Assembly: GCA_047967505.1 (NCBI GenBank)
Contig: CM106538.1
Reading direction: 5' to 3' (one strand)
Source of the DNA: Dipteris shenzhenensis
Lineage: Eukaryota
DNA length: 64,000 nucleotides
Under the pieces are notes generated by a model. The model made no database searches. It saw nothing but the letters and a program-made list of their open reading frames with translations, and was not told the DNA's origin. Positions 2,285 through 35,657 of the stretch are shown piece after piece (positions within the stretch are counted from its first letter, which is position 1; each line of letters starts with the position of its first letter). The position numbers and the translations under genes were made by a program.

Positions 2285-4018
2285 TCACTCAAGAGGCTTC
2301 ATCACAATTAGGGAATGGTTCTTGATATGGAGGCTGAATTGCCCGCCCTTCTCCGCAACATCCACTTTGTCTTGTCCAGGAGGTGGCAACAGCTCGAATG
2401 TCTGCACCATCCTGCCCAGCACGAGAGAGAGAATTGGCATGGCCAGAATTATGCCTGGGCAGCTCCTCCTCCCCACTCCAAAAGGCACAAACCTGAAATC
2501 GTTGCCATTAGCCTCAATATTCTTCTCCTCCTCCAAAAACCTCTCTGGCCTGAACACTTCCGGATCCTTCCACAGCTTGGGGTTGTTAGCAAGCCACCAG
2601 GCATTCACCAAAATCTTGCTCTCTGCAGGAATATCATACCCAGCAAGCTTAGCCTGGTTAAGGTTCATGTGAGGCACCAGCAAAGGAATGGCCATGTGGT
2701 ATCGCATTGTCTCCTTGACAACAGCCTGTAAATAAGGCAGCTTGGTGGTCTCTGGTTCTGTCACTAGCACTCCACGACCAAGGACTGTATCAAGCTCGTA
2801 CCTCAGTTTCCGTTGTACATCAGGATTGTTGACTAGCTCGGCGATACCCCACTCGATGGACCATAGCGTGGTCTCGATGGCTGTGGCACCAAAAAACACA
2901 GGTTCAGCAAATGTTCGATCCAGAAGGAATCACTCTTCAGACAGAAATGAGTTGTCTTAGAGGGAAGCAAGTACCAGCAACGTTGATGTTTTCGATGATG
3001 TATAGGACGTTATCTTCGTTGATCTCTCCTTTTGCCTCTGCTTCCAGGATGTGGTCGATAGCGCACTTTTCTTCGTTACTCTTCGTCCTCTTGTTGCTGA
3101 GAAGCTTTCTGTGACGGACGCAAATCAGGTTAGACCAAAATCAGGTTAGCTCCTGGGACAGACGATAGCTTCTTTAATATTGAGAAGCGGTGCAAGTATG
3201 CAGTCAAACACGAGAGATTCTCACTTGTGCTCGTCTAGGAAAGCGTCCTTGAAGACTTGCAATCGTTTATCCTTGACTTCTTGACAACGCTTAAGGTAAT
3301 TCTTCAGCAACGGCCTGAGAACGGGGATAAAATCACCATAATTATACTCGAAACTTTGTGCCAAACGACTACGCTCGTTGTTGAGAGCCCTGAGCTTGAG
3401 GAAAAGAGGGTCGTCCACGCTCTCGAATCTCCTGTCAAAGAGCATCCGGTACATGTTGTTGTACATGAGCAATTGCAGCCTGTGCCGAAGGACGATTCCA
3501 GTGGAAGCCGAGTCCTTGTGGACTTTCACATCCTCGATGACTTTGTCGATCTCTGCTTCCCAGCCCCCTCTGTATTGTTGCACCACCTTGTTGGTGAAGA
3601 AGGGGACGGTCATGATTCTCCTCATGCGCCTCCAGTGATCACCATAAACGGTGAAGACCATGTCTTGGCCCTTGCCGGTGAAGATATCAAAGACGACATT
3701 CCGGGTGCGAGATCCGAACTCGACGCCCTGGGTGTGGAGGACCTCCTTGGCGAGCTCAGGAGAGGAGACAACGACGAGGTTGCGCTGGCCCATGCGGAGG
3801 AGGAAGAGGTCGCCATATTTCTGGCCGAGCTCAGCGAGGTTGCGGTGGTTGAGGTCGTCGCCGACCTGGAGCCAATTGCCAAAGATGGGGAGGGAGAGGG
3901 GGCCGGGGGGAAGCTTGAGCTTGCGGGAAGAGAGCTTGAAGGCGAGAAGGGTGAGGGCGAGGATGGCGAGGAGGGAAAGGAGGGTAGATTCGAGGGAGAG
4001 GGGGGGTAGGAAATCCAT
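2285..4018 (-). CDS. C4H: Cinnamate 4-hydroxylase (cytochrome P450 CYP73A), 3 exons: 4018-3225, 3108-2975, 2880-2285; 507 aa
   Basis: Exon 1 has an N-terminal membrane anchor, then LPPGP and [15 protein letters not shown]...[27 protein letters not shown]. Exon 2 (134 bp, read by hand) gives [44 protein letters not shown]. Exon 3 has AIETT (I-helix), ETMR, PERF and the heme motif [15 protein letters not shown] introns at 3224-3109 and 2974-2881 join the exons in frame (1524 nt including stop). Confidence 0.97.
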
Positions 4019-7495: not shown

Positions 7496-8144
7496 CTATA
7501 ACATCCAAGCTAAATAAGCAAGACACTAGATCAAACCTAAAAATCTTCAATGAAAAAGAATTTAACAACCTATCATACCAACCCAAGTATCTCTATGACC
7601 CAACGGGACCATTACAAAAAAATTAGCCTAAAAAAGGGGCCCTTTGGAGAATTACTAAAATATTTGAGGCTTGGATAAGGGAATATGGTATCCATGAAGG
7701 AGATTATGCCATGTGGACTTCTCTATAACAGAGGCTCCGCAAATCTAGGGGAAATTTCAGTTTTTTTTCAAAATACCCCAAAAAACATCATTGGTGCTTC
7801 ACAATGCAAAATTATCTTTAACAGGCCTCCTTGTTTTCCTCCCATGGAAAACTATCCCCTAGCTAGAACTTTGCTCACGTTTTCCATTTTGTTCAACCAT
7901 TTGGCCCAAACTTTGACTTCCTAACTAACTCTTTCACTATCATTTCAAACATTCATTCTCGCCACTTTCTAGTAGCTGGTTTCAAAATTTCTTCATTCCA
8001 CTCTTGATTAGTCATTCTCTCTCCTCTTTGCTCACGTTTTTGTTCCACATTCGAAAATCTCTTAGAGAAATTTCTGCCAAAGCTATGTTCATCACTCTTC
8101 TCTTCCATTCATTCTCTACTTATTTCACTTTCCCTTAGAAACCA

Positions 8145-9153: not shown

Positions 9154-10500
9154 GCAGAGAAAGAGAAAGAGAGGGATAGAGAAAGAGAGAAGAGAAGACA
9201 TAAATTTTGAGGGTTTATGGATGTAGAAAGAGGTAGAAAGAGCTAATTTTAGTCATACGGTACAGGGGTAAAAACTATGGAAGTAGAAAATGATAGATAT
9301 CGAAGTAGTTTATAGTCTATTGTATTGAAGAATGTTAAGGATAAGCATGGGGAATGGATTCCTCAGCTCTACATGAAATATTCTTGGATGACAATGCAAC
9401 CCACTAATCATGGGTACTACAAAGTGGGTCGAAAGGATGCAATGGATATCTCCAAACATTGGAAGGGAAGGATCTTAGATTTTGAAATTTCTCACAGTAG
9501 TAACACAGTGACATGTATATATTCAACATGTCTTTACCCATGCAAACATATATGTGCATCCAAATGCAGGACTTCCATATCATAGGCCCAATTGTAAGTT
9601 GATCAAAGTGTACGAGTACTTCATTTGCATTTTAGAGTATTTGCGTTTATTTGGAGACTTTGAAACAACTTTCATATGCCTTGTATTTGTTTTATAGATT
9701 TATATCCATCTACTTACAAGAGTGGGAGCCTGCAACATGCATAATTGGGGTGTTGCATGTCCTCCATGTTGAGATCAGGAGTGTTTAGTATGAAGGCCAC
9801 ACACCATCAGAATTAAAAAAGGATGAGATCTTCTTCTATGACTCAATGGTCATTGTGCTAGATGAAGAAGGGCAATATGGTAGATTAGAATTTCTTCCCT
9901 TGCCTTCTTTTGATAGTCCATAATAAATGCTTCGAAGCATGGAGATAAGTGAATCATATATAAATAGAATGTTTAATGATGTGAGAAATGCTATGAAGCC
10001 AACGACTGGTGAGGGTGAGGAATACCTTACCCTATTGGAAGTGATGGAAGAAATTTGTCTTCGAGATGATGAGGTGCTATGTCAGCTCTTGAATGGCACC
10101 TTTGATGATGTCATTGACTTTGATGCTCCAGTCAATCCAGCAATTGATGAGATTGCACGCTTTGATGACTCGAGCCTCACCAATTTGGAGGCAATCCAAC
10201 AAACACAAAAGGCAATCGAGGATGCCACACTAGAATACAACATGTCCGATGAGGAGAACTCATGAATTTGCAAAGGGAATTGTCTAGGGAGAGAGATGAA
10301 GAAACTGGCACCTCAAGCCAGCATGAAGTTCAAGACCAACCACAAAAGGGAGTCCAGTTGGACACTATAGCTAACACAGTCCACGATGAGGCAGAAAAGG
10401 TATGTAGCTTTGCCAGCTTCATCGTGTGATTCAATATCATCAGTATAATTCTAGGTTCCATTTTAGCAACAAAAATCCATGCTTTGTCTTCAACTGGTAA

Positions 10501-10802
10501 GGAATAAAAAATAGGGTTTAGGGTTTAGCGTTCAAACCTCAACCAATTTTTTTTATTTTAAACCCAAGCTATCTTGTATGCCTAGGCAGGTGTATGGATT
10601 TTTAGCCCAAAATATGCCCTGGAAGCATGATATCCGACATCGTGCGACCAGGGTTTCAAAACAGGGCCCTGGTTGCACAACGTCGGATTTCATGCTTCCA
10701 CGGCATATATTGGGCTGAAAATTCATACACATGCAAGATAGCCTAGGTTTAAAAGGGAAAAAATTGGTTGGGGTTTGTACCCTAAATTGTACTTTTGATT
10801 CC
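10501..10802. repeat. Long imperfect inverted repeat (hairpin 1)
   Basis: Arm CAACCAATTTTTT...GCTATCTTGTATG...GTGTATGGATTTTTAGCCCAA...GGAAGCATGA.ATCCGACATCGTGCGACCAGGG pairs with CCCTGGTTGCACAACGTCGGATTTCATGCTTCC...TTGGGCTGAAAATTCATACAC...GCAAGATAGC...AAAAAATTGGTTG. Confidence 0.9.
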
Positions 10803-10982
10803 TACACTTGAAATTGAATAAATTTGACTCTCCACTCCCATAACCCCCTCCCACTTGCCCCTGACACTCCATTTGTGGAAAAAATTAGGGCTATGGTTTC
10901 CTCACATAGGGAAAAAAACGCGATTATTGGTTTTATTCAGCCCATAGGGGATACAATTAGGTTTAGGGTTTTCTCACAAAGG

Positions 10983-11223
10983 AAAATTTATCTATTAAAA
11001 CAATCATTTTTGGGAGGCCATTGAGACAAAAGTTACCATCTGCATGATTTTGATGCAAAAAAACCCTTGCAAACCCTAAATTCGACATTAGAGCCCACTA
11101 TAGGCCCTGGTCGCACGATGTCAGATTAGGGTTTACAAGGAGTTTTTTTGCATAAAAATCATGCACATGGTAACTTATGTCTCAATGGCCTCCCAGAAAT
11201 GATTGTTTTAATAGATTATTTTT
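10983..11223. repeat. Long imperfect inverted repeat (hairpin 2)
   Basis: ATCTATTAAAACAATCATTT.TGGGAGGCCATTGAGACA.AAGTTACCAT.TGCATGATTTT...AAACCCTAA pairs with TTAGGGTTT...AAAATCATGCACATGGTAACTTATGTCTCAATGGCCTCCCAGAAATGATTGTTTTAATAGAT. Confidence 0.92.
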
Positions 11224-12121
11224 CCTCTGTACACCTAATTCTTATTAATCCTTGAAAAATGATGTTTTCTTAATTTATATAATCGTGAATTATGGTTTAG
11301 GTTTTGATGTGATATGTTAGTTGCAAGATAGCTTATGGGTTGATGAATATGATGGACACAAGGGTGGAACCAGAGGGTCTTCTGGTGGGGGGATGGCTTT
11401 GATTAGCCATTACATGAATAGAGTGGCTCAACATTCTTTGGTCTTCCATCAACAATTATCACCAGATGGAAAGCTGAATATAATGAAGTTCAAGGTCCTT
11501 AGTCGGATGGTGAACATGAGGGCCATCCGTCCTACTATGGATCATATTGTTTTTGTTAGGCATAGTGTAGCTTTATTTTTGTTCTCAGACACATGATCCA
11601 ATCCTCTCCATAGCATCATAGGTATTGCAGGGCTAGTTGGTGTTACGGATCCCTAGGCTATAGAGAATGATATTGTGCAACCCTCTCTTCTGCAGCAAGC
11701 AAAAATGGGATCTAAACCAAGCAAGAAGAAGCATAGGCTAGAGTTACTTGTGCCTTAAAGTGGATGCTCTTTGTAATACCACTCTATGTCAATAAAGAAT
11801 ACAATTTTCATATTATTTTATTATTTGTTATTACGGAACATTGTTTCCTTTTGCATGTTAAGTAAAATTGAGTATTATTTCCTTTTGCACGTTCCATTGA
11901 GATTTGATGTTTATTATTTCATTTTGCATGTAAGCAAATTGAGACTGCATGTAAGTAAATTGTGGATTGCAAATACAATGAAAATAAATTTGAGATTGCA
12001 CATACAAAGACAAAGCAAAAAAAGACACTTTATTATAAAGAAAAGAGGTTGATACAAGACTGGTGCCCACACACACAGTACATGAACTCTAACTATCGCC
12101 CAAGGCATATATACAAAATCC

Positions 12122-12900
12122 CTAAGTGCCCTTGGGCTTCCTAAGATGGACAATAAACTGCGTATCTTTCATAGTTACATTGACCCTTTTCCTATGGATT
12201 GCGGCTAGCTAGGTGTCATCCATGAGGTCTACTAGGTAGGCCTCAGTTGCATGCTGCAAGGCAAGTAAGGCATCTCTGGAAATACACCATGGACGCTTAT
12301 AATACCGGCAGATGGGGCTATTGTTGAGGTCCTACATGACCTCGTGTACCACCCTTGCAAAGCTTGCCATCGGGATGAGCAGATCGATAGATTTTTGAAA
12401 CTTTCTGATTTCCCAAAGTGCCATGGTCCCTAGCTTGAACATGTATCTCCTCACACTAGAGGAGGGCCTCTTTGCCCTTGACATGGAGGGCCTCTTCCTG
12501 CTCTTTGCCCTAGACTTGGAGGTGGGTTTCCTCTCCCTTGTGGGTGTGGACATTGATTCTCTACTCTTGACTCAATCCTCTACTCTTTCCTTCGCTATTG
12601 CTCTTCCTCGTACTCCTCCTCTGTGCTCTCTGAGTCATCGGCCTCTACATCATGATCCTCCTGTGCCTTCCTCTGTCCCTTTGTCTTCAGGCCTACCCCT
12701 TGTTCCCTCTCTTGCCTCCGAAAAGGCAGTTTCTCCCTTTGACAGGGATCATCGAGGGAGAGGAGGGGGGGATTTCACTCTCCCCTTCAACGGTGATCAT
12801 TAGGGGGAGAGGAGGGGGGGATATCACTCTCTATCTCTGAGTCTAGAGGTGGGAGTTGTTGTGCCAATCTCCTTGGTGCCTTGATCTTGGGCTTGGCCAT
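12122..12900 (-). pseudogene. Divergent histone H3 variant (CENH3-like features), apparently intronless, decayed
   Basis: The frame from 12553 reads ...RRYMFKLGTMALWEIRKFQKSIDLLIPMASFARVVHEVM*DLNNSPICRYYKRPWCISRDALLALQHATEAYLVDLMDDT*LAAIHRKRVNVTMKDTQFIVHLRKPKGT* (stop at 12122-12124). This is a complete H3 histone fold with two internal TAGs (12332, 12209). An upstream ATG at 12900 gives the H3-like start MAKPKIKAPRR, joined to the fold through frameshifts. Confidence 0.85.
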
Positions 12901-13020
12901 GGAGGATGGAGACAGTGTGCGAGAGAAAGGGTGAGGGTGCGAGAGAAAGGGTGGAAATGTCAAGGGCAAGTGGGTAGATGGTGTGGGAGTGGAGAGCTCT
13001 TCAAACAATGAAATGAAAAT

Positions 13021-13056
13021 GAGGGCCCATTCTTTTATATAGGGCCCAAAACCCTA
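13021..13056 (-). promoter_or_regulatory. Putative promoter of the H3-like gene: telo-box, site II motifs and TATA
   Basis: Minus strand reads TAGGGTTT-TGGGCC-CTATATAAAAG-AA-TGGGCC, 120-155 bp upstream of the ATG at 12900. Confidence 0.55.
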
Positions 13057-13374
13057 CTTTTTAAAAATACGTGTTTGAATAAAAACTCAAAATTTTAAAA
13101 TTGGTGCAACCTTGAGCTAAGTACTTATAATTAACATCCAATAACTCAAAAATTCTCATTTGAACTACAATTCATGGCCATTATACGTTGGCTATACTAC
13201 AAATCACATAACTAAAATTACAAAGAAATTTTGAAACTTATGCATGGGCATCCACATTGGAAGAGTCTACACCATCATTTTCATCTGTCTCCACCAATAT
13301 ATCCCTAGCCTATGATGGGTTGCACACCACCTTGCATGATTCTGTCTTGCATTTGATGAGTTGTATATTCTTCT

Positions 13375-15380
13375 TCAACGTCTCGCGTTAACATCTTGCA
13401 CTACATGGGACACTAAGGACTCTTTGAATGCTACTATTGTAGTTGCTCTTATTTTGATACGCATGTACCACCATTGAACCAATTGAACCATTGGGCTTAA
13501 CTTAGCTCTACCAACCCCGTGTTGGGTCGCGTTGTTATATGCACAATGTGCTTTCCAATGTGATCTTTCCATGCGGACCACAATGTGATGCTTCCATAAT
13601 TCCATGCCACGTATGGTGCATGAGCATATAAAATGTGCTGCCAAATAGAAAAACAAATTAGTAATTATAGGACCATTCAATATGCACATCTTAATGTCCA
13701 AGTTAGAGATTACCATGTACTGTGTGAAATGATTATTTCCCCAAGCAATCTCCATATTCTGGCTAAAGTCATTCACAGCATTAATGAAACACTGTGCATC
13801 ATCATCTTCAAATCTTTTATTTTGTAGTAAAGGTACCAAGCTATCAAGAGCTAACTGGACTCGAGCCTTTTCCAATCTTTTTTGCTCCTTCCCCCCTCAT
13901 TCATAACAGGCATTGTGTAACTTTCTCCATACATCAAACTCATTAGCACGTTCGAGCTTGTCATTCTTCTTCTTTGCAGAAAGGAATTTTAAAGCCTTGA
14001 CACCACCAAAATCTTGGCTTACAAGGAACAATGCCTGTTTTTCCATATCTTTTCTCATCTTTTGTAATCTTTACTTGCCCAAAGTGTAAGTCCCATATCT
14101 GAAAGAACCTTTTCAATTCTTGCAATCATCCTCTCACTCTCTTGTTGGGGCTTCAAGTTATATGCATCAATGATGTACAGATGCACCAACTTTTCAATTA
14201 TTCTCAAAATAGCATGAAGTGCATAAAGGTGTACTCTCTCAAGAGGAATTTTAAGAATTGGGCTCCATGATGGATCTTTCCCTTGGAACATTCATATCCG
14301 GTGCCTTAGTTTTGATCTATCTCTGTAAGTTCAAAGGCCCATTGCTTTTGATTCTTTTTACCACCCTTTGCAGGTACTCTTGTTTGCATGCAGAGTGGAC
14401 AAGAATGGATTGTATTTTCTCCATGTGCCACATGAAACATACATTTAATAATCTTGAGGTCAGCAGAGCTAGATGCCATTCTACACGGTAGGATCCACAG
14501 CCCTCAACTTCAAGCAGCTCACCATTGTTATGACCTTTGATCACACTTGGGATATCGATTTGATCAAAAAACCACTTCAAAATTGAATGTGACTCATTTG
14601 GCACCTACAAAAAAAACTCACAAGTTATTTCAAAATATTCTAATTCTTTTTACATTACTGCATTAATGTTCAAATTTTCATCATACCTCAAAGGAAGCCA
14701 CCATCAAATCTCCTGTTTTGATTACATACTGAATTGTCTTGCATCATCAAGCTCAACTTCAAGGTCCAATATTCTATTCATCATTGTCAAACTAACTCTT
14801 TCTAATTGTTTACCTTTGACCACCTCACTTTCATCAAGCTTTAGTACAATCTTCAGAGTACCATTGCATTCCTCCATAGCATATCATAAAACTTCACCAT
14901 GGCTTGCAAAACTCTTCGAACATCCATCATAAAGTTGTTGTTGACTGTCAATTCCAATTCTTTAGACTCTCTAGCCTTTGTTTTCAAAGTTAGTGTACTA
15001 CATACATGCTGGTGCTCACCGACTAAATCAAGTATGCCAAAATTAAGTACATGCCTGGCTTTATCAACATTAGCCGATTTAGGAATTGGGGCTTTAACAT
15101 TTGCTCCCACAGAAAGACATGTTGTTTTTAAGCTCTTAAATATGAGATGATATGCCCTTGTATTTATCCCTGCAATATCACAAAATCCATGTGTACTAGT
15201 TGCATTGAAATGCTCCAAAACTTTGCTCATTGACTCAGATGTTATCTCCGATTTTAGACTTTTTAATTTTGGATGTTGTGTAATAGTCTCCAACATTGTT
15301 TTTTTTAACACTTCACCGATAGCACCAAGGTGTTCATCATGGATAGACATGAGTTTTGAAACACTCCTACAAGCTCTCAC
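13375..15380 (-). pseudogene. RAG1/Transib-like DDE transposase, decayed, with at least 2 introns (14686-14605, 13713-13638); may extend 5' toward ~16250
   Basis: Motifs read by hand across frameshifts, in order: LKIVLKLDES (D at 14833-35); FE|VPNESHSIL; HLxADLKIIKCMFHVAHGENTIHSCPLC (D at 14459-61, CxxC at ~14390-14401); LHAILRIIEKLVH (~14211); GGVKALKFL; FTQYM|HILYAHAPYVAWNYGSITLWS..MERSH. Both GT-AG introns restore the frame. Confidence 0.75.
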
Positions 15381-16256
15381 TCGATGCTTCTAGTGACCAC
15401 TTTTCTTGGATATTTCATCCATTGGATGCAATTTCGTCTTACATAGTCTTGGACCCATTGGAGTATCCTTCATGAATGATAATAATTTTTCCAACTTTTT
15501 AATCTCATCCTTTAGAGCTGTGTTTTGCATCTATAAGTGAATTGCATTTATAGTGCTCTCTCCCAATTGAGCATCTAAGGTTTGAACCTTTACCTATAAT
15601 TCCTGATTTTTCTTCTCTATGCCATCATATGTAGACATTTGAACACTTGCAGCTTGCATAGATGTAACAAATGTTGATTCCAAGTCTCCAACATTACAAT
15701 CCTTTTGTCTCTTTCATTAAGCAAAGATTCATATTAGGGATGTGAAGGCTACTTGCTCCATGAGCAATCAACCTTTGACAATATCCTCACAAACCATTCT
15801 CACCCTAACATAGAAACTTTATTAAGCTAGTCAATCCATGGAATTGAGGAGTCTGACAAGTTTGTGGATCTACTAGATATATTTTCCCTTCTAACCACAA
15901 ATCCATATGTGTTTTTCCTTGATTTCAAAGAGCTACTAAATCATTTTCACTTGCTAAGGAGAATTCATTCCTCTTTAAAAATGGTGCATTCTGAGCATCA
16001 ATTTGAAAATTGATATCTACCTTTTTTTATTCTGAGAGCTTGCATGATTTCATACACTTTCCACCTAATATAATATAACATTGACATCAACAAAAAATAT
16101 ACAAACATGACATATTTCAAAAAAGTATCAAACCAAGCAAAAATGAAAACCCCAATTGCATGCAAAATCTAGCGATTGAAATCTACAAATTCAAAAAAAA
16201 ATTTACTTATCATCAAACATTGCTAAACTATATGAATGAACATTACCTCACAGGGA

Positions 16257-17064
16257 CCTTGAAGGAAAAATGTGATCAAACTTGTCTTCCTCACCGGTCC
16301 CTCTTATAATCAAGGATATTGAAGTTGATGGAATTTTCTCCAAAACTAATTATATGCTTTCAAACAACTCCAAATCTATTTCAAACCATCTTCTATTAAA
16401 AAACTCAATAGTAAGAGTGTTTCTTTTAAAACAAACAAATCTTTCTTCCTCTTCAAATCATGTATTAAAAGAAAACAACACAATTACCAAAACAAACTAT
16501 AAATTAACTGCTTCTTCAAGGTTACATCATAAAATCTTGTTATTTTCATTGTCTTGCATTGTTCTAAAGGTTTTGTCACCTAAATCTCCATGCAAGTTAC
16601 TTTGATAGACCCTGATTTGAGTTAAAAACCAAAAACATTCTAAAACTACAAGAATGAAAGTACCTGATTCTTGGAGCAAGGTCCTTTGAAAGAAAAATGT
16701 GATCAAACTTGCCCCTTCCAATGGTCCCTCTTGTGTTCAAGGAATGCTCAAGTTGATGGTTCTTGCTTCAAAACAAATTATATGCTCCCACACATCTCGA
16801 AATCTATTTCAAGCAATATTTTGTAGAAAAATATTGATATTAAGAGTGCAAAAGACTCAATTTTCTTACAAAACGAACAAATCTTTCAATTTTCTCAAAC
16901 CATGTAATAAAAGAAAACTACACAACTATACAAAATGAACTATGAACTAACTGTTTCTTCAAAGTTACATCATTAACAAACAAATCTTGTCATAATCGTT
17001 GAGTTGCATTGTTCTGAAGATTATCTCACTTGAACCTCCATACAAGCTGTCTCAATAGACCTCA
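16257..17064. repeat. Diverged tandem duplication, ~430 bp unit x2
   Basis: TTGAA.GAAAAATGTGATCAAACTTG...GGTCCCTCTT...AAGTTGATGG...AATTATATGCT...AATCTATTTCAA...TAAAAGAAAAC...TTCTTCAA.GTTACATCAT...TGCATTGTTCT...ATAGACC begins at ~16260 and again at ~16687. Confidence 0.8.
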
Positions 17065-19998
17065 TGTTAGATATCAATGCTCCACTCTCGTGTAACTATG
17101 AGGGAACTAGCTAACTCTACTTATAAGCCCCCCATATAAGGAGAAGGCATTTGAGTAGCTCGGTTATTCGGTAGGTCTTGGTTTGGACACTAGATGGGGG
17201 CCATGTGTGGCCTGATGGCTGGACGAAGTTGGCACATTGCCAACTAGACTACATGCAAGTGCAGGAGAAGGCATCCCATGACTAACCGCATTGAGGTAAG
17301 ACGGAGCTTTTCCCGAGGCAGCCCACTCTTGCGTTACGGGGCTCGTTTGGAGTCCCAGATGATCTCGAATGGCTCTATTTTGTGCACCGATTCTATCGTG
17401 TGTTCAGTGGCCTATTTCGAGACCGACCCCCAGTCGACCAGACGGAGGTGGAGAGTTCACATCAAGTGAATTCAAAAGTTACTACAAAAGTCATGGGATC
17501 AAGAGGCAGAAACCCCCACCACATACATCACAGCAAAATGTAGTAGTAGAGCACAAGATGTGCGTCATCTGCGAAATGGGCAGGAGTATGATGAAAGGGA
17601 AAGATTCGCTAAAGACTTTTTGGGCTGAAGCATGTAACATGGCAGTTTACATTCTGAATCGTAGCTACATGACGGCTGTGAACGGGATGACTCCACTGTA
17701 GGCCTTTTCTAGTAAGAAACCTTCAACTGCACATTTCAGAGTTTTTGGATGTGACTGTTTTGTGCATGTCCCTAATGCTAATAGAACCAAATGGGAACCG
17801 AAGAGACGGAAATGTATTTTCTTGGGCTACAGTGAAGAGGCGAAGGGTTATCGTCTCTATAATCCTGTTACGAAGAAGGTAATAGTAAGTCGTGATGTGG
17901 TCTTCTCAGAACAGTCGCATCAAATGGGGGAAGATGCTTCCTTCCCAGACAACCAGGACCATGTTGGATAAGTATCAGCTCACGGCAAAAGGATTCACAC
18001 AGGTACATGGTTTTGATTATCAGGATACTTTTGCTCCCACAACTCGACTAACCACAATTCGCAGTCTTTTGGCTTTAGCTACCCAGGGAAGTTGGCCCGT
18101 GTTTCAGATGGATGTAAAATCCGCCTTTCTGAATGGAGATCTCGAGGAGGAGGTATACGTGGAACAACCTCCAAGTTTTGTGATCCCCGATTCAGAAGGT
18201 AAAGTCTATAAACTGAAGAAGGCACTTTACGGGCTGAAACAGGCCCCACCAGTGTGGTACCAGGGGATTGATGCCTATCTTCTACAAAACGGGTTCAGGA
18301 GGAGCCCATCTGATGCAAATTTGTATATCCTCAGAGAAGGAGGCAGATGTATGATCATGGTCCTTTATGTGGATGACCTTGTCATAACAGGGAATAATGA
18401 AGAGAAGATCTCACAGACAAAGCATTTGCTAGGAAGAGAGTTTGAAATGATAGACCTTGGACTAATGCATTTCTATTTGGGGATTGAAGTTTGGCAAGAG
18501 CCAAAATAGATCATCTCATAGCTGAAGTATGCTGGAGAGATACTGAAGGCATTTGGCATGGCTGAGTGCAAGACAATCGGCACCCCCATGGAGGTTGACG
18601 TGAAGCTCTCAAATGAGGATTCATCACCACTAGTGGACCAAGCGAAGTACAGAAGGCTTGTGGGCAGTTTGATTTACTTGTGCAACACGCGGTCGGACAT
18701 CAGCTTTGCAATTGGTGTACTAAGTAGGTTTTCCAATAAGCCCCGGGAGAACCATTGGAGGGCAGGGATGCCGGTGCTAAAATACATCAAAGGCACACCT
18801 ATACCAAGGGCAACACCTATACCAAGGGCAACATCTTGACCGGATTCTATGACTCGGATTGAGCAGGAGACGTGGACAGCAGGAGATCAGTGACAGGTTA
18901 CTGTTTCTCACTTGCGTATGGAGCTGTGTCATGGGTCAGCAAGAAGCAACCCACACTTGCTCTCTCTTCTACCGAGGCTAAGTACAAATCAGCATGTTTT
19001 GCTTCTTGTGAGGCAGTGTGGTTGAGGAGGATTTTGGGGGACATGGGTGCAGTGCAGAACAAGCCTATGCAATTATCATGTGACAATCGGAGTTGCATGG
19101 CGATTGCAAAGAACCCTATGTTCCACACTCGCACAAAACACATTGAGATTCAATATCACTTTGTACGCGAGCTCATCATGGATGGAGAGGTCAACTTGGT
19201 GTATTGTCTAACTGTAGAGAATGCTGCGAACATCTTCATGAAGGCTCTTGGAGGAGACTTGCTAGAGAGGTATCTTCATAGACTTGGCATTGGCCCGAAA
19301 AAGTAAGTTCACTTGCAGGTGGACATTGAGGGGGGGTGTTAGATATCAATGCTCCACTCTCATGTAACTATGCGGGAACCAGCTAACTCTACTTGTAAGC
19401 CCCCCATATGAGGAGAAGGCATTTGAGTAGCTCGGTTATCCGGTAGGTCTTGGTTTGGACACCAGATGGGGGCCATGTGTGGCCTGATGGATGGATAGAG
19501 TTGGTACACTGCCAACTAGGCTACATGCAAGTGCGGAAAAGCATCCCATGACTGACCACACTGAGGGTAGATGGAGCCTTGAGGTAGCCCACTCTTAGGT
19601 TGTGGGGCCCATTTGGAGCCCCGGATGATCCCAGATGGTTGTGGGCTGGTGGCCTATTTCGGGACCGACCCCCAGTCGGCCGTTTTGGGTGGACTGGGTC
19701 AGTCACCCAATTGAGTCTAACTGACTACGAGTGGTGGCTATATAAGAGCAAGCCCGTGAAGCCCATCATCATCACTAGTTATAGCAACCCTGATTCCTTA
19801 GCATCCAGCCTCCGTCCTCTACTGGTTCTAGCATGCCATCGAAGCTTCTCTCACAGGAGCGCGCAGCTGGGAGGCACGACGCCATCTATTGTATTAGTTT
19901 TACAGTAAATAAATTTCTGATTCTCCATACTATTTGCTTTTCTCTCTTGCATACGATATCCTATTATCTATTGAGCACAAACATATTATTTTCTTACA
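17065..19998 (+). mobile_element. Ty1/Copia LTR retrotransposon (family A), internally deleted
   Basis: TG...CA ends, 5-bp TSD CCTCA (17060-64 and 19999-20003), 3' LTR 19337-19998 after the PPT GAGGGGGG. The 5' LTR is truncated at ~17440 and fused to integrase (GGEFTS). RT motifs QMDVKSAFLNG and LYVDDL, RNase H motif [13 protein letters not shown]. Gag and protease are missing. Confidence 0.93.
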
Positions 19999-21257
19999 CC
20001 TCAAACCTTCACAAATGGTTCGAAATCATAAACCCTTAGAGATTGTAATAGGGAAAGAGACTAGTATTGAGAGATGGGCAAAAGAAAGATTGATTTTCAT
20101 GCATCAGCAACTGTAATGCCTGAAAGTCAATCTTCTTTGATCCTTTCTCAAATAATATCGTCCAATAGCTTCTTCTAAGCTCCAAACACCCTGCATCATT
20201 CATGGTTCTCTCAAAACATTGATTGCCTTGTCTTCTTAAATGAAATGATTTTAGATCGTGGGATAATCTCATATGAGAGAGGAAGTAGCAAGATTTGAAG
20301 TAGAAGCACCCAAAATAGAGAAAGAAGAAGGTAGGCTGAATCTCATTCACAAATCTTGAAAGTTTTGAAAGAATGAGAGTGAAATGGGATGGAAATGCAC
20401 GTAGAGAAGAGAAGTGACAAGATTTTGGTGTGAGAGTCCATTCCATGAGAGGGAGAGTAGAGAAAGAAGCTTCCCACTTCAAAGCAAGCAAGAAATTTGA
20501 AAAGAGGGTTAGAGCAAAGAAAAATTCAAAATGATGCTCAAAAATGAGAGGGAAGGAAGAGGAATGAGAGAGAATGAAAGGAGTGTGGTAGTTGGATGGG
20601 AGGATTTGGTTTCAGGTCAAATGGTACAAGTTTGGTTGAGAAATTGGTTTCTCAGTTTTGTTACAGTTAAGGGAGAGTTGAGGCAGCAAGTGGGTGCTCC
20701 ACATCATTGTTTGGGCCATCGAATAAAAGAAATAGAGAAGTCAAGCCACTTTCAATATTCTATTGCCCTCCACTAGCTAATATCTATTAGGTTTTATTCA
20801 CCTTATTCTTCCATTTGACCAGCTCAAGGGCTCCTTTTTTAGTCCAATTTTTTTGTAATGCCAACCCCATTACCCTTACATCTACACAAGAACCATTTAT
20901 TAAGTTCAACTGACAGTGGCCCCCACTCTAACATTGTAGGGAGCCACTTGCACAATAGAGCCATTCATCTCACCTATAGATCAGGGACACAGTAGAGACA
21001 TCAATCAAGGATACCAAGGCCCCCCACCTTTTGGCACCCAAAATGCTTCTTCATATTGATGGACTCCCAAAACTCACATGTACTTGCGTTCAATCTTAGT
21101 TTTCCTATAGCATTCCAATATTTGCACTAGCTTATTCTCTAAGATGAAAGAAAATACCCAACCCAGCAACATAGCAAGTGTTTGAAGAGGAAGGAACTGA
21201 CAATTATCAATGTATACAAGTGCTTGAGTCATCATCAAGATGATATCATTGTGGTGG

Positions 21258-23683: not shown

Positions 23684-26600
23684 TGTGAAGATTGTGGGAG
23701 AGAGGGAAGGAGTCTCACTTGCGGCTTTCTCACATGCACAATGGGGGAATACACACAAAGGTGGAGGCTGAAAACAGTTTTCCTCTTCTTAGATGTGAAA
23801 GCCAAAAGAACTCAAGTACAAAGAAATAGAAGAACCCTATATGTGGGTCTCAAAACCAAACTCAACTAACTAAGGTGGCATACTAACTGAGCCACGAACT
23901 AGTGTAGATAAGGATAGCTGTCATCCAGCTATTATTCGTGGGCAGTGTACCAACCGCATCTCCAGCTAACAAGTCGGTGACATAAGTACACAACGGTCAC
24001 CCTGGCATATCTCGAGTGGAGCTCGATATCTCAACACTCCCCCTCGAGCTCAATCCCAAATCCTGCACACCAAACAAGTCTCTGAACTTGCGCAGCTTCT
24101 CTGCGCCCACTGCTTTTGTGAATATGTCAGCTACCTGATCCTCTGTGCTGACATAAACTAGATCAATAAGACCTAGTAAAACCTTCTCCCGCACATAGTG
24201 ATAATGCACCTCAATGTGCTTTGTTCTAGCATGAAAGACTGGGTTCTTTGCCAAATGTATACTACTCATGTTGTCACAATAAATGACAACCGGCCCATCT
24301 GTAGACTGATGCATATCATAGAGTAGCTTATGCAACCAAGCTACCTCACACGCAGCCATTGCTGCACCCCTGTACTCAGCCTCTGTGCTCGACAAGGCAA
24401 CTGTAGGCTGTTTCTTGCTGCTCCAAGTGACTGCAGCACTCCCAAAAGAGAACACATATCCATTGGTAGATCGTCTATCTGAAATGCTACCAGCCCAATC
24501 AGCATCAGTGTATCCATGCAACTGTATCTGAACCCCAGCCTCATAAAATAGTCCATACTGCAATGTGGACTTCACATACCTGAGTATGCGTCTAGTCGCA
24601 TCCAAATGCGGTTTCCTTGGAGCTTGCATAAACTGACTTACCAACCCAATAGCATAGCTCAAATCTGGCCTGGTAATAGTCATGTAAATCAAACTTCCTA
24701 CTATGCGTCTGTACATAGTAGGGTCTTCCAGAAGCTCACCTGCATCTGTGCTCAGCTTCACATTCTGCTGCAAAGGAACTGAAATAGGCTTACAGCCTAT
24801 CATCCCATATTTGGATAGCATGTCCAATCCATACTGCCTCTGCAAGAGCTGTATCCCACTTGGTGATCTAATCACCTCAATGCCCAAGAAATAACGCAGC
24901 TCTCCCAAATCCTTCATCTCAAACTTCTGCCTCAATAGCATTTTCACATGAAGGATATCTTCATCACTATCACCTGTGATGATCAAATCATCAACATAAT
25001 GACCAGCAGCATAATCCCTTTCTCTGTTTTTCTCACAGAGTGAGAAATCTGCCTTGGAAATCTGAAAGCCAATAGTGACAAGATACTGTCCTATCTTGTC
25101 AGACCATGCTCTAGGTGCTTGCTTCAAGCCATACAAGGCTTTCTTCAACTTGCAAACAAACTCAGGATGAGTAGCATGAACATAACCTGCTGGCTGCTCC
25201 ATAAAGACCTCTTCTTGCAAATCACCATGCAAGAAGGCATTCTTTACATCCATCTGATGTAAAGACCATCCCTTTGATGCAGCCATAGCAATGGCTGCTC
25301 TTACGGTTTCCATCCTTGCAACCGGGCTGAAAGTTTCTTCATAATCAATGCCATATGTCTGTGCATACCCCTTGACAATAATCTTGCCTTGTATCTATTC
25401 ACAGAACCATCTGCATTGTGCTTGATCTTATAAACCCACTTACAGCCAATTGCATTCTTGCCTTTAGACAAAGGCACCAATTCCCATGTAGCATTAGCAT
25501 CCAAGGCATCCATTTCTTCATCCATGGCTTTCTCCCATTTTTCATTTCCCATGGCTTGCTCAAAAGAAGTGGGTTCTGGTTCCTGTATCACTTTGACCAT
25601 ATAGGCATAGTGAATGGCTGTAAATCCATCATATTTCAGCCTATCTACAGGATACCTAACCCTGGTAGACCTGCGCAAAATAGGCTCACTTCCAAGTTCT
25701 CTCAAAACATCCCTGGTCTTCCTTACTCCAGGTGTAACAACAGAAGGAATACCCAACTCATCATCAATGCTCTGTTCTGAGCCACTGGATTCACCATCCA
25801 CACAAGAGTGACGTGCATTCACATCATACATGGGCTGATCTACCTTCTCTTTCCCTTTTCGTGATACCTGTGTACCACTCTCTGCATTGCTTTGAGGGGA
25901 TTCTCCTGATCTCAATCTGCCTGTCCATGGCGAAGTATGTGAACCACTGGTAGAGGACACTCCAGGTCCACTGATATTTTGTGATTGCTGCTGTGCATTC
26001 TGTGCAGCATTACCATTTTGTGCATCTACATCAATCATCACATTTACTGGTTTATACCAGCTGCTCATCTCATCAAAAACAACATCTCTGCTCACTGTGA
26101 ACTTACGTGTAGAAGGGTTATAGCATCTATACCCTTTCTGCTGCAGAGAATAACCAATAAAGACGCACTTCTCAGCTTTTGGATCCAACTTGGACCTCAA
26201 CTCATCTGGCACATGGACATAGGCAATGCAACCAAAAATCTTCAAATGAGAAATATCTGGTTTCCTACCAGTATACATCTCCTCTGGCGTCATGCCATGT
26301 ATTGCTGCAGTGGGAATCCTGTTCATTATATAGACTGCTGTAGCAACTGCTTCAGCCCAATAATAATCTGGTAGATCTTTTTCATTTAGCATAGCCCGAG
26401 ATACCTCTCCAATATGCCTGTTTTTTCTTTCTGCAATTCCATTTTGCTGTGGGGTATGACTGCATGAATATTGCTGCTTTATACCATGCTCCTGCAAGAA
26501 CCTTGCAAACTCATTTGAGAGGTACTCTCCCCCTCCATCTGACCTTAGGCATTTTATTTGTAGGCCTGTTTCTTTTCAACCATAGCTTTGAAAGCTATGA

Positions 26601-29256
26601 AGTGCCCAAACACTTCACTTTTCTTTTTCATAAAATACACCCATAATTTTCTGCTGAAGTCATCAATAAATGTGACAAAATAGTGACAGCCTCCAATAGA
26701 TGCAGCTTTTGTAGTCCACACATCAGAGTGGATTAATTCCAATGGCTTTTTACTCTCTTGAACATGCCTAGGAAAAGGTTTCCTTGCCTGTTTCCCAAAT
26801 TGACAGGCTTCACAAATCTTGTGCATTTCTGCAACCTTGAATTTTTGCAATCCTGCAACAATATTTTGGGCTTGCATTGATTTAAGTCGTTGTATATTAA
26901 CATGACCAATGCGTTTGTGCCAGATATCAATATCTGCAACTACATCGGTCCCATGTGCAAACATTGCTGCACTCAATTCAGGCATGTTTGCATCCAACGT
27001 AAACATCCTGCCCTTCTACTTTCCTTTTGCTATCAAGCGACCATTATTTTTCATATCCTCAACAAAGCATCCATGAGGATTAAATCTGACCTGCAAGCCC
27101 TGCTCAACCATGTGACCAACAGAAACCAGGTTCTTGGTGATGTTCGGGACATGAAATATATCATCAGACAAGTATTTCTTTTTCCCATCCTGCATAGACA
27201 AAGGAATTTTGCCAATCTGCACAATAGGATGTGCAGTATCATCACCAGTCTCCACAAATCCTGGCTTTTCCATTTTCCTTGCATCTTGCATCCATTCTGC
27301 ATGACTTGTCATGTGGTTTGACGCACCTGAGTCAACATACCACACATCATTTTGTTCTTCTGCACTTGTCACAGAATTGGTCATATGCTGCACCATAAAT
27401 AGATGCTCATTTCTGTCATCACCCTGCCTGCTAGAAGATGCATAATTGCCTTGCTGCAATTTTCCATTCATAATGTCATTCTGTTTTTTGTAGTAGTCCT
27501 TAGCCATATGACCCATTTTGCCACAATAGTAGCATTCAACATTGCTGTTTGCATTTTGGCTTCTCTGCCATCCACCACGACCTCTTTGGCTCCCCCTGCC
27601 TCTAGAGTTACCACGTCCTCCTGCATAGGACTGGTTTTCTTGCATTTGCTGCATATTCTGATTTCTACCACGGCCTGCAGATCGGCCTCCTCTACCTCTG
27701 CCTCTACCTCTGCCAGCATTTGAGTAGAGGATAGTTTCTTTTGAAGTTCCTGCTGAAGAAGATGCACCACCATTTCTCTGCTCTTCAGAAATTAGAAGAG
27801 CAATCAGCTCCTTAAATAAGGAAAATTTTCACGGACGGCAATGGATGTCCGGAACTGTGCATAATCCTTTCCTAGACCATTCAAGGTCACGGAAACCAAA
27901 TCATCATCATCCACTGGCGACCCAATGGAAGCAAGTGCATCTGCAATTTTCTTCACTTTCATGTGGTAGTCATTTATGCTCAAATTTTCTCTCTGCACAT
28001 TGTGCAACTCCTGTTTGAGTTGCATTTTCTTGGCTTGCGTATTTGTGCTGTACATTTTTGCCAAAGTATCCCATGCCTCCTTTGGCATATTTGCATCCTG
28101 AATATGCACAATCATGGAGTCCGAAATGCTGATAGACAGCCAGTACATAACTTTCCTGGCTCTCTCATGCCATCCTTTGAATGCCTGCATTTCCTGTTGA
28201 CTGGGAACATTAGGAAGAACAGGTTCTTCTTCATTTCCTGTAATGAAATCCCAATAGCCTTTTCCCATCAAAAAATTCGTCATTCTAAACTTCCATGCCT
28301 GGAAGTTGTTCTTGTTAAGCTTTTCAGTGACAGTCTGTGAAAGAGAATCAGACGCCATTACAAAACTCTGCAAAATATTCTGTCACTGCAAAAAAACATA
28401 GCTTTTGCCTCACACGGGCAGATCTGCAAAACTGACAAAAGTGGTATTTCACCACACAGTCACTTCCTAGTGACGATTTTGCATCAACAGGCAACAGGCA
28501 TGAATCTGCAACTCCCAATATCTCTACACACAGGCATACGATGCAATTTCTGCGGCACGTTTCCACCGACTAGCCGTGCAGTGGTCGCACAGCAAAAAAT
28601 AGGGCCTTTTTCTGAGTGCCTGCGAAGAACTTCCGCCTTCAAAACGGGCCTCGAAACGGCCTCAAAGCGGAAAAATAAAGTCACTGACGGCTTCGCCCTC
28701 TCCCGCAGCATATACTGCGCTCTCGCCACACCGCGAAGGGCGTCTCAATCTGAAACAGTGCACTCCTGCACTTCTGGCTGTGCTACCTGCAGAGATTTGC
28801 TCCCAAACTCGAAATAGGAAAGCAACACTGGTCCTCTTACCAGGACACCACGAACTTGGCTTGCTTTCTTGAACTCCTTACCACGAACAAGGCTCTGATA
28901 CCATGTGAAGATTGTGGGAGAGAGGGAAGGAGTCTCACTTGCGGCTTTCTCACATGCACAATGGGGGAATACACACAAAGGTGGAGGCTGAAAACAGTTT
29001 TCCTCTTCTTAGTTGTGAAAGCCAAAAGAACTCAAGTACAAAGAAATAGAAGAACCCTATATGTGGGTCTCAAAACCAAACTCAACTAACTAAGGTGGCA
29101 TACTAACTGAGCCACGAACTAGTGTAGATAAGGATAGCTATCATCCAGCTATTATTCGTGGGCGGTGTACCAACCACATCTCCAGCTAACAAGTCGGTGA
29201 CATAAGTACACAACGGTCACCCTGGCATATCTCGAGTGGAGCTCGATATCTCAACA
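23684..29256 (-). mobile_element. Full-length Ty1/Copia LTR retrotransposon (family B), relatively young
   Basis: 353-bp LTRs at 28904-29256 (5') and 23684-24036 (3'), differing at 4 positions that I could see. TSD AAATC, PBS TGGTATCAGAGCC (28891-28903, tRNA-iMet type), PPT next to 24037. Confidence 0.97.
23997..28373 (-). pseudogene. Copia gag-pol polyprotein broken by frameshifts and stops
   Basis: Gag (28373-27804), zinc knuckle CYYCGKMGH, protease WYVDSGASNHM, GAG-pre-integrase and integrase (WHKRIGH...CEAC...FIDDFSR...PQQNGIAERKNR), RT (QMDVKNAFLHG, YVDDL), RNase H (DADWAG...KHIEVHYH). Confidence 0.95.
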
Positions 29257-29538: not shown

Positions 29539-32500
29539 TATACGAAAATAATACAATGTCTGTGCTCAACAGATTACATGATCTCCTACACAAGAGAGAA
29601 AACAAGATAGTATGGAGAATCAAAAATTTGATTATTGTAGAACTAATATGATAGATGGCGTTGCCTCCCAGCCGTGCGCTCCTGTGAAAGAAGCTTCGAT
29701 GGCATGCTGGAAACAGTAGAAGATGGAGACTGAATGCTAAGGAATCAAGGTTGCTATAGCCAGTGATGAAATGGGCTTCACGGGCTTGCTCTTATATAGC
29801 CACCAGTCGTAGTCGGTTAGGCTCAATTGGGTGACCGACCTAGTCCGCCCAATATGGTCGACTGGGGGTCCATCCCAAAATAGGCCACCGACCATATGAT
29901 AGAACGGATGCGCAAAACAGAGCAATTAGCCTAGGTCTCTGTTTCGCCCACAACCATCCGAGATCATCTGAGGCTCCAAACGGGCCCCGCAACCCAAGAG
30001 TGGGTTGCCCTAGGAAATGCTCTGTCTACCCTCAGCGTGGTCAGTCAAGGGATGCCTTCCCACACTTGCATGTAGCCTAGTTGGCAGTGTGCCAACTCTA
30101 TCTGAAGCCATCCAGCCATCAAGCTACACATGGCCCCCATCTGGTGTCCAAACCATGACACAACTCCAGATCTAAGTGAGAAACAGTACCCTGTCACTGA
30201 TCTCCTACTGTCCACGTCTCCTGCCCAATCCAATCCGAGTCAAAGAATCCGGTCACGATGTTGCCTTTGGTATAGGTGATGCCATAATCAAGTGTGCCTT
30301 TGATGTATTTCAACACCCGCATCCCTGCCCTCCAATGGTTCTCCCGGGGCTTATTGGAAAACCTGCTAAGTACACCAGTCGCAAAGCTGATGTCCGATCG
30401 TATGTTGCACAAGTAGATCAAGGTGCCCACAAGCTTCTGTACTTCACTTTGTCCACCAGTGGTGATGAATCCTCATTTGAGAGCTTCGCATGAACCTCCA
30501 TAGGGGTATCAATTGTCTTGCACTCAGCCATGCCAAATGCCTTCAGTATCTCTCCAGTATACTTCAGTTGTGAAATGAAGATCTGTTTCAGCTCCTGCCA
30601 AACTTCAATCCCCAAACAAAAATGCATCACTCCGAGGTCTATCATTTCAAACTCTCTTCCTAGCAAATGCTTTGTCTGCGAGATCTTCTCTTCATGGTTC
30701 CCTGTTATGACAAGGTCGTCCACATAAAGGACCATGATCATACACTTGCCTCCTTCTCTGAAGATATACAAATTTGCGTCAGATGGGCTCCTCCTGAACC
30801 CGTTTTGCAGAAAGTAGGCATCAATTCACTGGTACCATGCTCGTGGGGCATGTTTCAGCCCATAAAGTGCCTTCTTCAGTTTGTAAACTTTACCTTCTGA
30901 ATCGGGGATCTCAAAACCTAGTGGTTGTTCCACGTATACCTCCTCCTTGAGATCTCCATTCAGAAAGGTGGATTTCACATCCATCTGAAACAAAGGCCAA
31001 CTTCCCTGCACAGCTAAAGCCAAAACACTGCAAATTGTGCTTAGTCGAGTTGTGGGAGCAAAAGTATCTTGATAATCAAAACCATGTATTTGTGCAAATC
31101 CTTTTGCCATGAGCCGAGCCTTGTACTTATCCAATGTGCCATCGGACTTGTACTTGATCTTGTACACCCACTTGGTTCCGATTACCTTGCATTTTGGTGG
31201 CCGATCCACAAGGTCTCAAGTGTTGTTCTTCATTATAAAGCCATACTCTGACTGCATAGCCTCCATCCACCTATCGTCACCCTGTGCCTCTTCAAGACAC
31301 TTGGGTTCATCAGCACGGATCACTTTTGTCATCAAAGCATAGTTGACCAAGTGTTCCTGTGCCCTTCTTTGCTCCTCTAATCTCTTCGACCGACAGTGTT
31401 CGGATGGTTCCTCCTCAATGGCTGGAGGTTCTCTGCCGTCCAAAAGTTGCTTTACCCACTTCAGGAATGGCCGTTGCCGTTGTGGTTCTGCAAGCTCTTC
31501 TTCATTTTCTTTGTCTTGAATCCTCCCAAGCACCGTTGGGGGAGTTTGGTATGCTATTGGTGGCGGTACTGGATGGATATCCTAGTCCTGGTTGTCTGGG
31601 AAGGAAGCGTCCTCCTCCAATTGATGCATCTATTCTAAGAAGAAAACATCATGACTTACAATTAATTTCTTGGTAATAGGGTTATAGAGACGGTGACCCT
31701 TTGCCTCTTCACTATAGCCCAAGAAATTACGCTTCCGGCACTTCGGTTCCCATTTCGTCCTGGTAGCATCAGGGACATGCACAAAACAGTGACATCCAAA
31801 AACTCTGAAATGTGCAGCTGAATGTTTCTTACCAGAGAAAGCTTGTAGTGGAGTCATCCCATTCACAGCCTTCATGTAGCTACAATTGAGGATGTAAAGT
31901 GCAGTGTTACATGCTTCAGCCCAGAAAGTCTTTGGCAAATCTTTTCCTTTCATCATACTCCGGCCCATTTTGCAGATGACGTGCATCTTGCGTTCTGCTA
32001 CTCCATTTTGCTATGATGTATGTGGCGGGGGTTTCTGCCTCTTGATTCCATGACTTTTATAGTAACTTTTGAATTCACTCAATGTGAACTCTCCACCTCT
32101 GTCCGATCTCAGCTTCTTCACCTTCCTCCTTGATTCTTTCTCGACCATTACATGCCATTCCTTGAGCCTACTGAAAGCCTCATCTTTCGTCTTCAGGAAG
32201 TATATCCATATCCTTCTACTGTAGTCATTGAGATCAGCGTCATGAAGTAGAAGGAACCACCCAAAGCTTCCATCTCCATCTTTCCGCAGAGGTCCGTGTG
32301 TACGAGCTCTAGAGGAGCCTTTGCTTTGTTAGCCTCTTTAGGAAAGGGCTGCCAATGTTGCTTGCCCATCATGTAAGCTTGACATACATCAGGCAAATCT
32401 AAAATTTCTGGTAGGTCTCCAATCATTCCACTTTTATGCATCTCCTTCAAAGAACTAAGGTTTAGATGACCAAACCTCTCATGCCACAGCTTAGTGTTCT

Positions 32501-34581: not shown

Positions 34582-35020
34582 ATCTCATCTTCCCCTTCTG
34601 TCCATACTTAAGGCCCTTAGCTTAAGAGTCAAGACTGCTCATTAACAATCGCATTCATTGGCACTCATGATCATGGTCCGCAAGTTCCCCAAAATGCAAG
34701 GAGTTGGAGTATAGACCACCCTCAAGAACACACAACAAACACTCGCATCCAATATCCCTCGTGTTCGTGGTCTATAATTTCTCTAAGATGCAAGGAATCA
34801 GAGGGGTAAACCACACCCAGAGGTATAATGAATGCTGGCTCATGCTAACCCACTTAGCCTTACAACCATTTAGATTCAAATTGTGGTTCACTTTCTTTCC
34901 CAACTTATCAGGATATGAACCACAAACGGATCGGATGGCAAGCCTCTATCACCATTTCCATTAATATATAGCCTCGAGGTGCATAGGAAATTGGGAATCT
35001 GCATCCCATAGCACCGTCAG

Positions 35021-35133
35021 TACCTAAGACACTACCAGCGGCAAAATTAATATTCCCAGTGGTAATATTGATTATCTCGATGGTGTAAATACCATCGGGA
35101 ATATTAATTCTACTGCCGGTAGTGTCTTGGGTA
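35021..35133. repeat. Short hairpin built from ACTACC/CCGGTAGT-type motifs
   Basis: TACCTAAGACACTACCAGCGGCAAAATTAATATTCCC pairs with GGGAATATTAATTCTACTGCCGGTAGTGTCTTGGGTA. Confidence 0.8.
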
Positions 35134-35657
35134 TCGGTGGTACATGTATCCAGTTACCGGTGATTTTTTTCGATAACCTACCTGATCACATTGTTTTCAT
35201 GCAACTTGGAAGAGTAATTAACGAACGTTAATAACCCATTAACACAAATGTAAAAATGTGATCATAATCCTTGATCTATTCTAAAGGCCTTCAATCTCAA
35301 CAAATTGTTCCATACATTTAGCTTAACTAAGGAGAAAGATAATTGAACAAGTATTTATTTTTCAATTGGGATATTCCATTGATTTGTTAAATGTAAAGGT
35401 GAGAGTGGCCAATTAAGCTTCAAATTTTCATGCAAAGGAGGGACTTGAACTCAAGACATCCATTAGCCACTCATGATATCTTACCAAGAGACTACATGAA
35501 AATGTTGTGAAAGAACCAAGTGTGAAATACCCTCATAAGTAAGAGGGGAGGGACCCAGAGACCTCCTCGTTTATGGCTCTCCTTATTACCCCTCCCCTTG
35601 TCTTTCCATTCCTCCACTCCTCCCTTTTTCAATAACTAATACATTTGTGAATATTTT

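Follow-up and report, generated by a model that had tools for sequence, protein, structure and literature searches.

A probable pseudogene of a divergent, intronless CenH3-like histone H3 variant in transposon-rich DNA of Dipteris shenzhenensis

Analysing a stretch of 64,000 nucleotides of Dipteris shenzhenensis DNA (the window), we found on its minus strand an H3-like gene copy whose H3-type histone fold (12571-12122) is genuine and far above chance, and which, judging by its reading frame, appears to make no full-length histone now. We consider this copy, with a probability of about 0.7, to be the fairly young pseudogene of a very divergent, lineage-specific, intronless CenH3-like H3 variant.

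The H3-type fold and a proximal basic tail together occupy 12122-12571 of the minus strand (150 codons including three TAGs; TAG read as X in the translation, here called P0001). An earlier interpretation of this DNA made from its letters (the sequence-only reading) had claimed that a complete H3 fold is recoverable by reading through two TAG codons, and independent searches agreed with it. P0001 matched the Pfam family Histone (PF00125) with an E value of 1.5e-23 and 83.8 bits (cut-off 26.4), residues 13-144 covering positions 6-122 of the 122 in the profile. A search of the PDB with P0001 returned 176 distinct sequences at E <= 0.001, the best at 3e-19, and all 60 of the matches listed were histone H3 chains. 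The AlphaFold model, built from a 42-sequence alignment, had a mean pLDDT of 82.5 with values above 90 in the fold, and showed helices at residues 49-60, 68-78, 86-91, 99-119, 123-126 and 134-144, including a long alpha2 and a short additional helix within loop 1. Foldseek with this model gave at least 500 matches, 383 of them at E <= 0.001; the top ones were all nucleosomal H3, the target-normalised TM scores against nucleosomal H3 being 0.60-0.78. P0001 thus contains alphaN, alpha1, loop 1, alpha2 and alpha3, which are contiguous and free of introns across the fold. Together, the agreement of Pfam, PDB, AlphaFold and Foldseek indicates that the H3 fold is real.

The coding sequence of P0001 is not uninterrupted. 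A first in-frame TAG (12332-12334, minus strand) stands opposite Q76 of H3 (the q of 'eiaqdf') and a second one (12209-12211, minus strand) opposite N108 (the n of 'edtnl'), while the terminal TAG (12122-12124, minus strand) is at the usual end of the H3 fold. The first TAG is a single C>T step away from CAG, so that both the alignment and the codon agree with the proposal that it lies at Q76 and arose by decay of CAG to TAG; at the position of the second, P0145 and P0276, two of the more similar relatives, carry Gln. Both TAGs are substitutions and fall inside the fold whichever gene model applies. TAG is a stop in this genome, given that the gene for trans-cinnamate 4-monooxygenase (C4H; CYP73A) in the same window aligns without any stop over residues 25-502 of a 505-aa relative. 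Likewise, the assembly is not generally error-prone, since the reading frames of C4H and of Copia are clean. The C4H gene (minus strand, 2294-3937; exons 3937-3224, 3110-2976 and 2884-2294) is intact and its product is 71-82% identical to seed-plant and fern C4H; the H3-like gene is found ~8 kb from it, in TE-rich plant nuclear DNA.

The class CenH3 is defined by function, according to a passage of PMC3380720. The CenH3 diagnostics of Malik and Henikoff (2003), as relayed in a passage of Drinnenberg et al. (2014; PMC4359364), are a longer loop 1 and the lack of Gln, Phe and Thr at three positions, the diagnostic Thr being printed there as '118' and corresponding to T107 in the numbering of the sequence-only reading. 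Scored against these diagnostics, P0001 has the longer loop 1 and lacks the Gln and the Phe, and it keeps the Thr. The extended loop 1 (12281-12325, minus strand) has 15 residues versus 6 in H3. Counted from the end of alpha1 to the start of alpha2, the stretch has 19 residues in P0001 and a mode of 10 among the H3-family sequences (40 of 155), in agreement with the claim that loop 1 is about nine residues longer than in H3; a stretch of at least 19 residues was found in 13 of the 155, P0001 counted among the 13. In the alignments, Ala takes the place of Q68 (opposite the q of 'pfqrlv' in the PDB alignments), and the place of F84 is taken by Ile in the MAFFT numbering or by Trp if shifted by two, i.e. 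by Phe in neither, so that the loss of Q68 and the replacement of F84 noted before are both seen. Pro was confirmed opposite H3 R63, as the reading of LLIPxASF for LLIRKLPF had it, and Thr opposite the t of 'edtnl' indicates that T107 is indeed retained. The Thr of 'krvt' is replaced by Asn in P0001, in a column that is 99% Thr among 154 relatives. The proximal tail, from MSTPTRERK... to ...SSSVRRYMF, is of basic character and rich in Ser; the normal K9 and K27 contexts are missing from it, as had been stated, and so are the canonical contexts of K4 and K36.

A HMMER search of 1.84 billion representative proteins gave 7635 hits at E <= 0.001; the seven hits below 1e-30 were proteins with multiple H3 copies. 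Fold domains were extracted from 157 sequences, and the 155 obtained are the basis for the identities, the tree and the column counts given here. The top identity to P0001 among these domains was 52%, found for P0240, a 'histone H3-like protein' of Carex littledalei (over 84 aligned residues), and for P0181, an unnamed Logan protein (over 97 aligned residues), and canonical H3 was 47-50% identical. P0240 carries Pro at R63 and no Q68, which are CenH3-like traits, and Pro at the R63 position is also found in the CenH3-like hits P0181 and P0145. The Logan cluster of P0145 and P0276, both unnamed, has the wording of alpha1 and of alpha2-alpha3 in common with P0001 and a loop 1 that is longer still, at an identity of just ~47-50%. 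A word-index protein search with the fold gave 4 hits among 26 candidates, the best at 49% identity, and none of the 134 pattern matches in JGI metagenome contigs was confirmed. In a FastTree phylogeny (155 sequences, 102 columns), in which P0240 was the named plant CENH3-type reference, P0001 had a branch of 0.81 and was sister to P0197 with a support of 0.24, its neighbours being unnamed metagenome or transcriptome proteins. The placement of P0001 in the tree is therefore unsupported, and because of this its putative membership of the CenH3 class is one by traits and not by phylogeny. An exact-sequence look-up of 30 of the nearest proteins named 13, which belong to insects, mites, a fish, a fungus, a green alga, Brassica, Vicia and Carex; since these organisms are scattered, the names carry no lineage signal.

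We then compared the residues of P0001 with the columns that hardly vary in the family. Of the 27 columns with a conservation of 90% or more in the 154 relatives, P0001 agrees with 23; in the other four it has C instead of R, N instead of T, F instead of L and H instead of R. A second count, in which the query was part of the consensus, gave 1 violation in 24 columns for P0001; this is the median, 81 of the 155 sequences being equal or worse. The retention of 23 of the 27 columns argues that the sequence moved ~50% away from H3 while it was constrained and that the disabling changes are comparatively young; this was probably a very divergent but working H3 variant whose loss is fairly recent. 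Conservation of the fold equal to that of living members would fit as well a gene that is alive elsewhere or in other individuals. Looking at columns with a consensus of at least 60%, we counted 31 departures of P0001, of which 9 lie a single C>T or G>A change and 3 a single T>C or A>G change from the consensus, 9 are a possible transversion and 12 need at least two changes (the categories overlap). The observed/expected ratio of CpG was 0.26 at the H3-like gene (13 CpG in 779 nt), 0.23-0.25 in its flanks and 0.23 in Copia; it was 0.79 and 0.39 in the two longest C4H exon ORFs and 0.40 in the whole window. The C>T excess (9 vs 3) and the CpG counts, both of which are small samples, would fit decay by deamination in a copy that was silenced and methylated.

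Beyond the proximal tail, the sequence-only reading had described a composite tail running from MAKPKIKAPRR onward. A three-frame view of this distal 'tail' (12572-12900, minus strand) showed no continuous frame. The ATG at 12898-12900 opens MAKPKIKAPRR..., a lookalike of H3-family N-termini (the matches start with MARTK, MPRVK or MGRIK), and its frame meets a TGA after 37 codons; getting from this ATG to the fold takes three or more frame changes within 329 nt, across TGA and TAG stops. The two ESxIPPSSP units are encoded by a tandem duplication of 49 + 48 nt that can be read from the sequence (12831-12783 and 12782-12735, minus strand) and whose copies differ at ~8 of 48 positions (counted by eye). 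An extra base in the first copy puts the second one into another frame, and downstream of the repeat all routes to the frame of the fold need more frame changes and cross stops. The duplicated ESxIPPSSP of the proposed tail is thus real, but the tail is not one frame. The distal tail DNA is purine-rich and yields acidic or basic tail-like peptides in all three frames; given that such DNA looks tail-like in every frame, its acidic and K/R/S stretches are weak evidence of a tail. Three indels fall in the 329-nt tail versus none in the 450-nt fold, a difference that is not significant (p ~0.08 by our own arithmetic); uneven indels could mean that part of the 'tail' was perhaps never coding, or that it is an intron.

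Upstream of the ATG at 12900, at a distance of 125-155 nt, there is a promoter-like cluster (13024-13056, minus strand) composed of TATATAAAA (13041-13033, minus strand), AAACCCTA (13049-13056, plus strand) and two copies of TGGGCC (13048-13043 and 13029-13024, minus strand), which we take to be a TATA box, a telo-box and site II, respectively. TATA box, site II and telo-box are elements of plant promoters of proliferation-linked genes. The telomere-repeat-like AAACCCTA has six matches in the window (2.24 expected; none of 100 shuffles reached 6), and all of them fall within 10512-13056 (2.5 kb). Five of the six lie within or next to a pair of related MITE-like hairpin elements of ~260 nt (10524-10786 and 10976-11230), which have a 22-nt core in common. 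On the 3' side, an AATAAA (12029-12034, minus strand) is positioned 87 nt past the stop codon, and the sequence read after it holds no poly(A) tract.

These signals bear on the origin of the pseudogene. Retrocopies should lack an upstream promoter of their own, and the TATA-type promoter-like cluster together with the missing poly(A) tract argues against a classical processed pseudogene, as does the lack of a flanking direct repeat. The intronless fold, in turn, argues against simple segmental copying of a plant CENH3, which typically has multiple introns. Within the pseudogene reading, we hold it possible, if rather doubtful, that the copy is a processed retrocopy of a multi-intron CENH3 of the host. 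Such an origin would suit the intronless fold, the CenH3-type traits and the fact that the protein of highest identity is P0240, a CenH3-like plant protein, and CENH3 pseudogenes are known in cowpea, as reported in a passage of PMC7738545. However, the identity of 47-52% to all relatives combined with the invariant columns kept indicates divergence under constraint and not decay of a recent copy.

It is unlikely that the gene is a live one that we misread, be it through assembly or consensus errors, a private null allele, or a true model that is shorter or spliced. The fold is as conserved as in living relatives, the structural model is confident across it, and promoter-like and poly(A) signals exist. 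The frame breaks of the tail adjoin homopolymer runs (C7 and C5), an alternative in-frame ATG (12551-12553) would give an H3-sized product of 143 codons, and a GT at 12827 joined to the AG at 12572-12571 restores the frame behind a candidate exon 1, MAKPK...SEIE. However, the TAGs are not homopolymer errors and stay in the fold under all models, and the nearby C4H and Copia ORFs are clean. Typical plant introns are not G+C-rich with a purine-rich acceptor; the 256-nt candidate intron is G+C-rich (53% G+C in the tail region) and has a purine-rich acceptor, and GT/AG pairs are in frame by chance in one third of cases. The claim that the gene is intronless holds for the fold, which is contiguous; for the distal tail a spliced exon-1 model is conceivable.

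The sequence-only reading had taken the gene for a TE-borne H3 variant or histone mimic. Carriage of the H3-like gene by a TE is not supported by our data, and we regard it as quite unlikely that it is a captured H3, the cargo of a DNA transposon ending at a 39-nt inverted pair or of a larger element, that was spread or kept as a mimic. BLASTN of 10500-13300 against the window returned the query itself, the two hairpin elements and this inverted pair (E 2.9e-4), whose left arm (10828-10866) and right arm (12958-12996), 82% identical, bracket the H3-like gene, the right arm lying in the 5' leader between the promoter-like cluster and the ATG. Given that the pair is unique in the window (only 2 matches) and unmatched in 100 shuffles, none of which reached 2, it represents real similarity. 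The CpG depletion is TE-like too, and the two MITE-like elements and a chain of ORFs adjoin the gene. However, the 39-nt pair has no target-site duplication of 2-9 bp (flanks ...aaatttga and ctcttcaa...) and no extension, its outer 100 nt being matched by 19% and its inner 100 nt by 63% of 500 shuffles, and the promoter-like cluster is outside it. TBLASTN of the fold found one copy in the 64-kb window, two other hits having E values of 7.6 and 9.9, and no long direct repeats flanking the gene were found. Pfam searches recognised no transposase, whether in the six-frame translation of 13000-17499 or, at E values up to 10, in six ORFs nearby. A second inverted pair that is unique (7610-7644 and 20826-20860; 35 nt, 91%, 13.2 kb apart) encloses the H3-like region, which would speak for carriage, but it shows no homology past its arms. 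A literature search found, in the portions of text available, no transposon-borne H3 in plants. The gene is broken by its two TAGs and by three or more frame breaks in the tail; therefore there is no working mimic here. What the window shows fits a single-copy pseudogene with no link to the terminal inverted repeats, the case that the sequence-only reading had itself named as contrary to its proposal.

The surroundings of the gene were surveyed in the same window. The ORF chain directly upstream of the H3-like gene (15389-13375, minus strand) has ORFs of 178, 95, 78, 57 and 173 codons separated by frame breaks; it had no match in Pfam, in the PDB (one ORF searched) or in the ESM Atlas, and its candidate identities are a gene in decay and a TE protein of unknown type. 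The top ESM Atlas scores for two neighbouring ORFs (0.78; COMM and YbeY clusters) were under the lead threshold and were treated as noise. At 17065-19681, a Copia RT fragment (17889-18509, plus strand) is placed between direct repeats of 93% identity (17065-17262 and 19337-19534). A Copia pol region with zinc knuckle, beta-barrel, integrase and RT spans 23997-28382 on the minus strand, its ORFs of 465 and 424 codons being open. The repeats of 29545-45194 are a tandem or nested array, in which an ORF-bearing unit of ~4-6.6 kb occurs in 3-5 direct copies of 75-95% identity with start spacings of 4312-6751 nt. Shorter repeats are a 317-bp tandem repeat (59724-60441; 2.3 copies, 98% matches), a 136-bp repeat (40196-40446; 1.8 copies) and a CT-rich microsatellite block (47805-48087). 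An Rfam search of the whole 64-kb window gave no match.

Two further possibilities involve mobile or foreign DNA. The copy might belong to a mobile family of intronless CenH3-like genes, borne by a transposon or a virus, and have been killed only recently. The members of such a family would have their own promoter, the vehicle would end at the 39-nt pair, and intact, expressed copies elsewhere in the genome of this plant would put modification-poor H3 on the chromatin of the element; this we deem improbable. That it is the histone remnant of an integrated large DNA virus with its own H3 is hardly credible, for although the neighbouring ORFs fit no known family, none of 12 pattern matches in IMG/VR viral contigs was confirmed, hallmark genes of viruses were not recognised, the promoter has motifs of plant type and the gene is flanked by ordinary TEs of plants.

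Returning to the pseudogene of a CenH3-like variant, the ancestral gene would have had a fold without introns and a start that was probably the MAKPK ATG (12900) behind the TATA-type promoter. Its product would have carried a long tail containing the repeat, and would presumably have paired with H4 via an H3 fold that was ordinary except for its longer loop 1. The copy may then have been silenced and have decayed, in the course of which two sense codons of the fold would have become TAG and the slippage-prone tail would have gained a 1-nt indel in the tandem repeat and more frame breaks; the ancestral function, the order of these events and a decay driven by methylation are what we infer from the present state of the copy.

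Taken at face value, the locus is just another histone pseudogene among plant TEs and changes nothing; its value, a modest one, is that of a pointer. The fold is ~50% diverged from every H3 or CenH3 matched in the library of 1.84 billion proteins and has kept its invariant residues. This divergence with invariants kept suggests that an unusual CenH3-like H3 variant, intronless and very long in loop 1, exists in the host lineage or did so until recently. Any paralogues still intact could act as a second centromeric histone, as an H3 restricted to the germline or, least likely of all, as a histone borne by a TE.

Compared with known systems, P0001 resembles the CenH3 class in its long loop 1, in the lack of Gln at Q68 and of Phe at F84, in its non-canonical tail and in the change of R63 to Pro, and it differs from that class in that it keeps T107, is broken, has an intronless fold and has no supported grouping with named CenH3. 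The locus also recalls gene capture by Pack-MULE and Pack-CACTA elements, since a host-type gene lies between short inverted repeats in TE-rich DNA. Unlike such captures, the locus lacks long TIRs and a target-site duplication, the window contains no second copy, and what is present is a whole gene with promoter-like sequence and not a piece of one. The text of a review of gene capture by plant DNA transposons (PMC13317346) makes no use of the word 'histone'. Lilium offers gH3, gcH3 and leH3 of male germ cells, highly divergent, lineage-restricted H3 paralogues that trees cannot cleanly part from cenH3s and some of which are probably non-functional, according to a passage of Talbert et al. (2012; PMC3380720). 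P0001 is likened to them, by published description and not by sequence, as a divergent plant H3 that is poorly separable from cenH3. Likewise non-functional plant copies of CENH3 type are CENH3.3-pseudo and CENH3.4-pseudo of cowpea, which, in the part of Ishii et al. (2020; PMC7738545) that describes them, are partial duplicates that keep exons 2-4 and 5-7 of the parental gene and adjoin it or are near it. Unlike these cowpea pseudogenes, the H3-like copy described here is full-length, intronless in the fold and very divergent.
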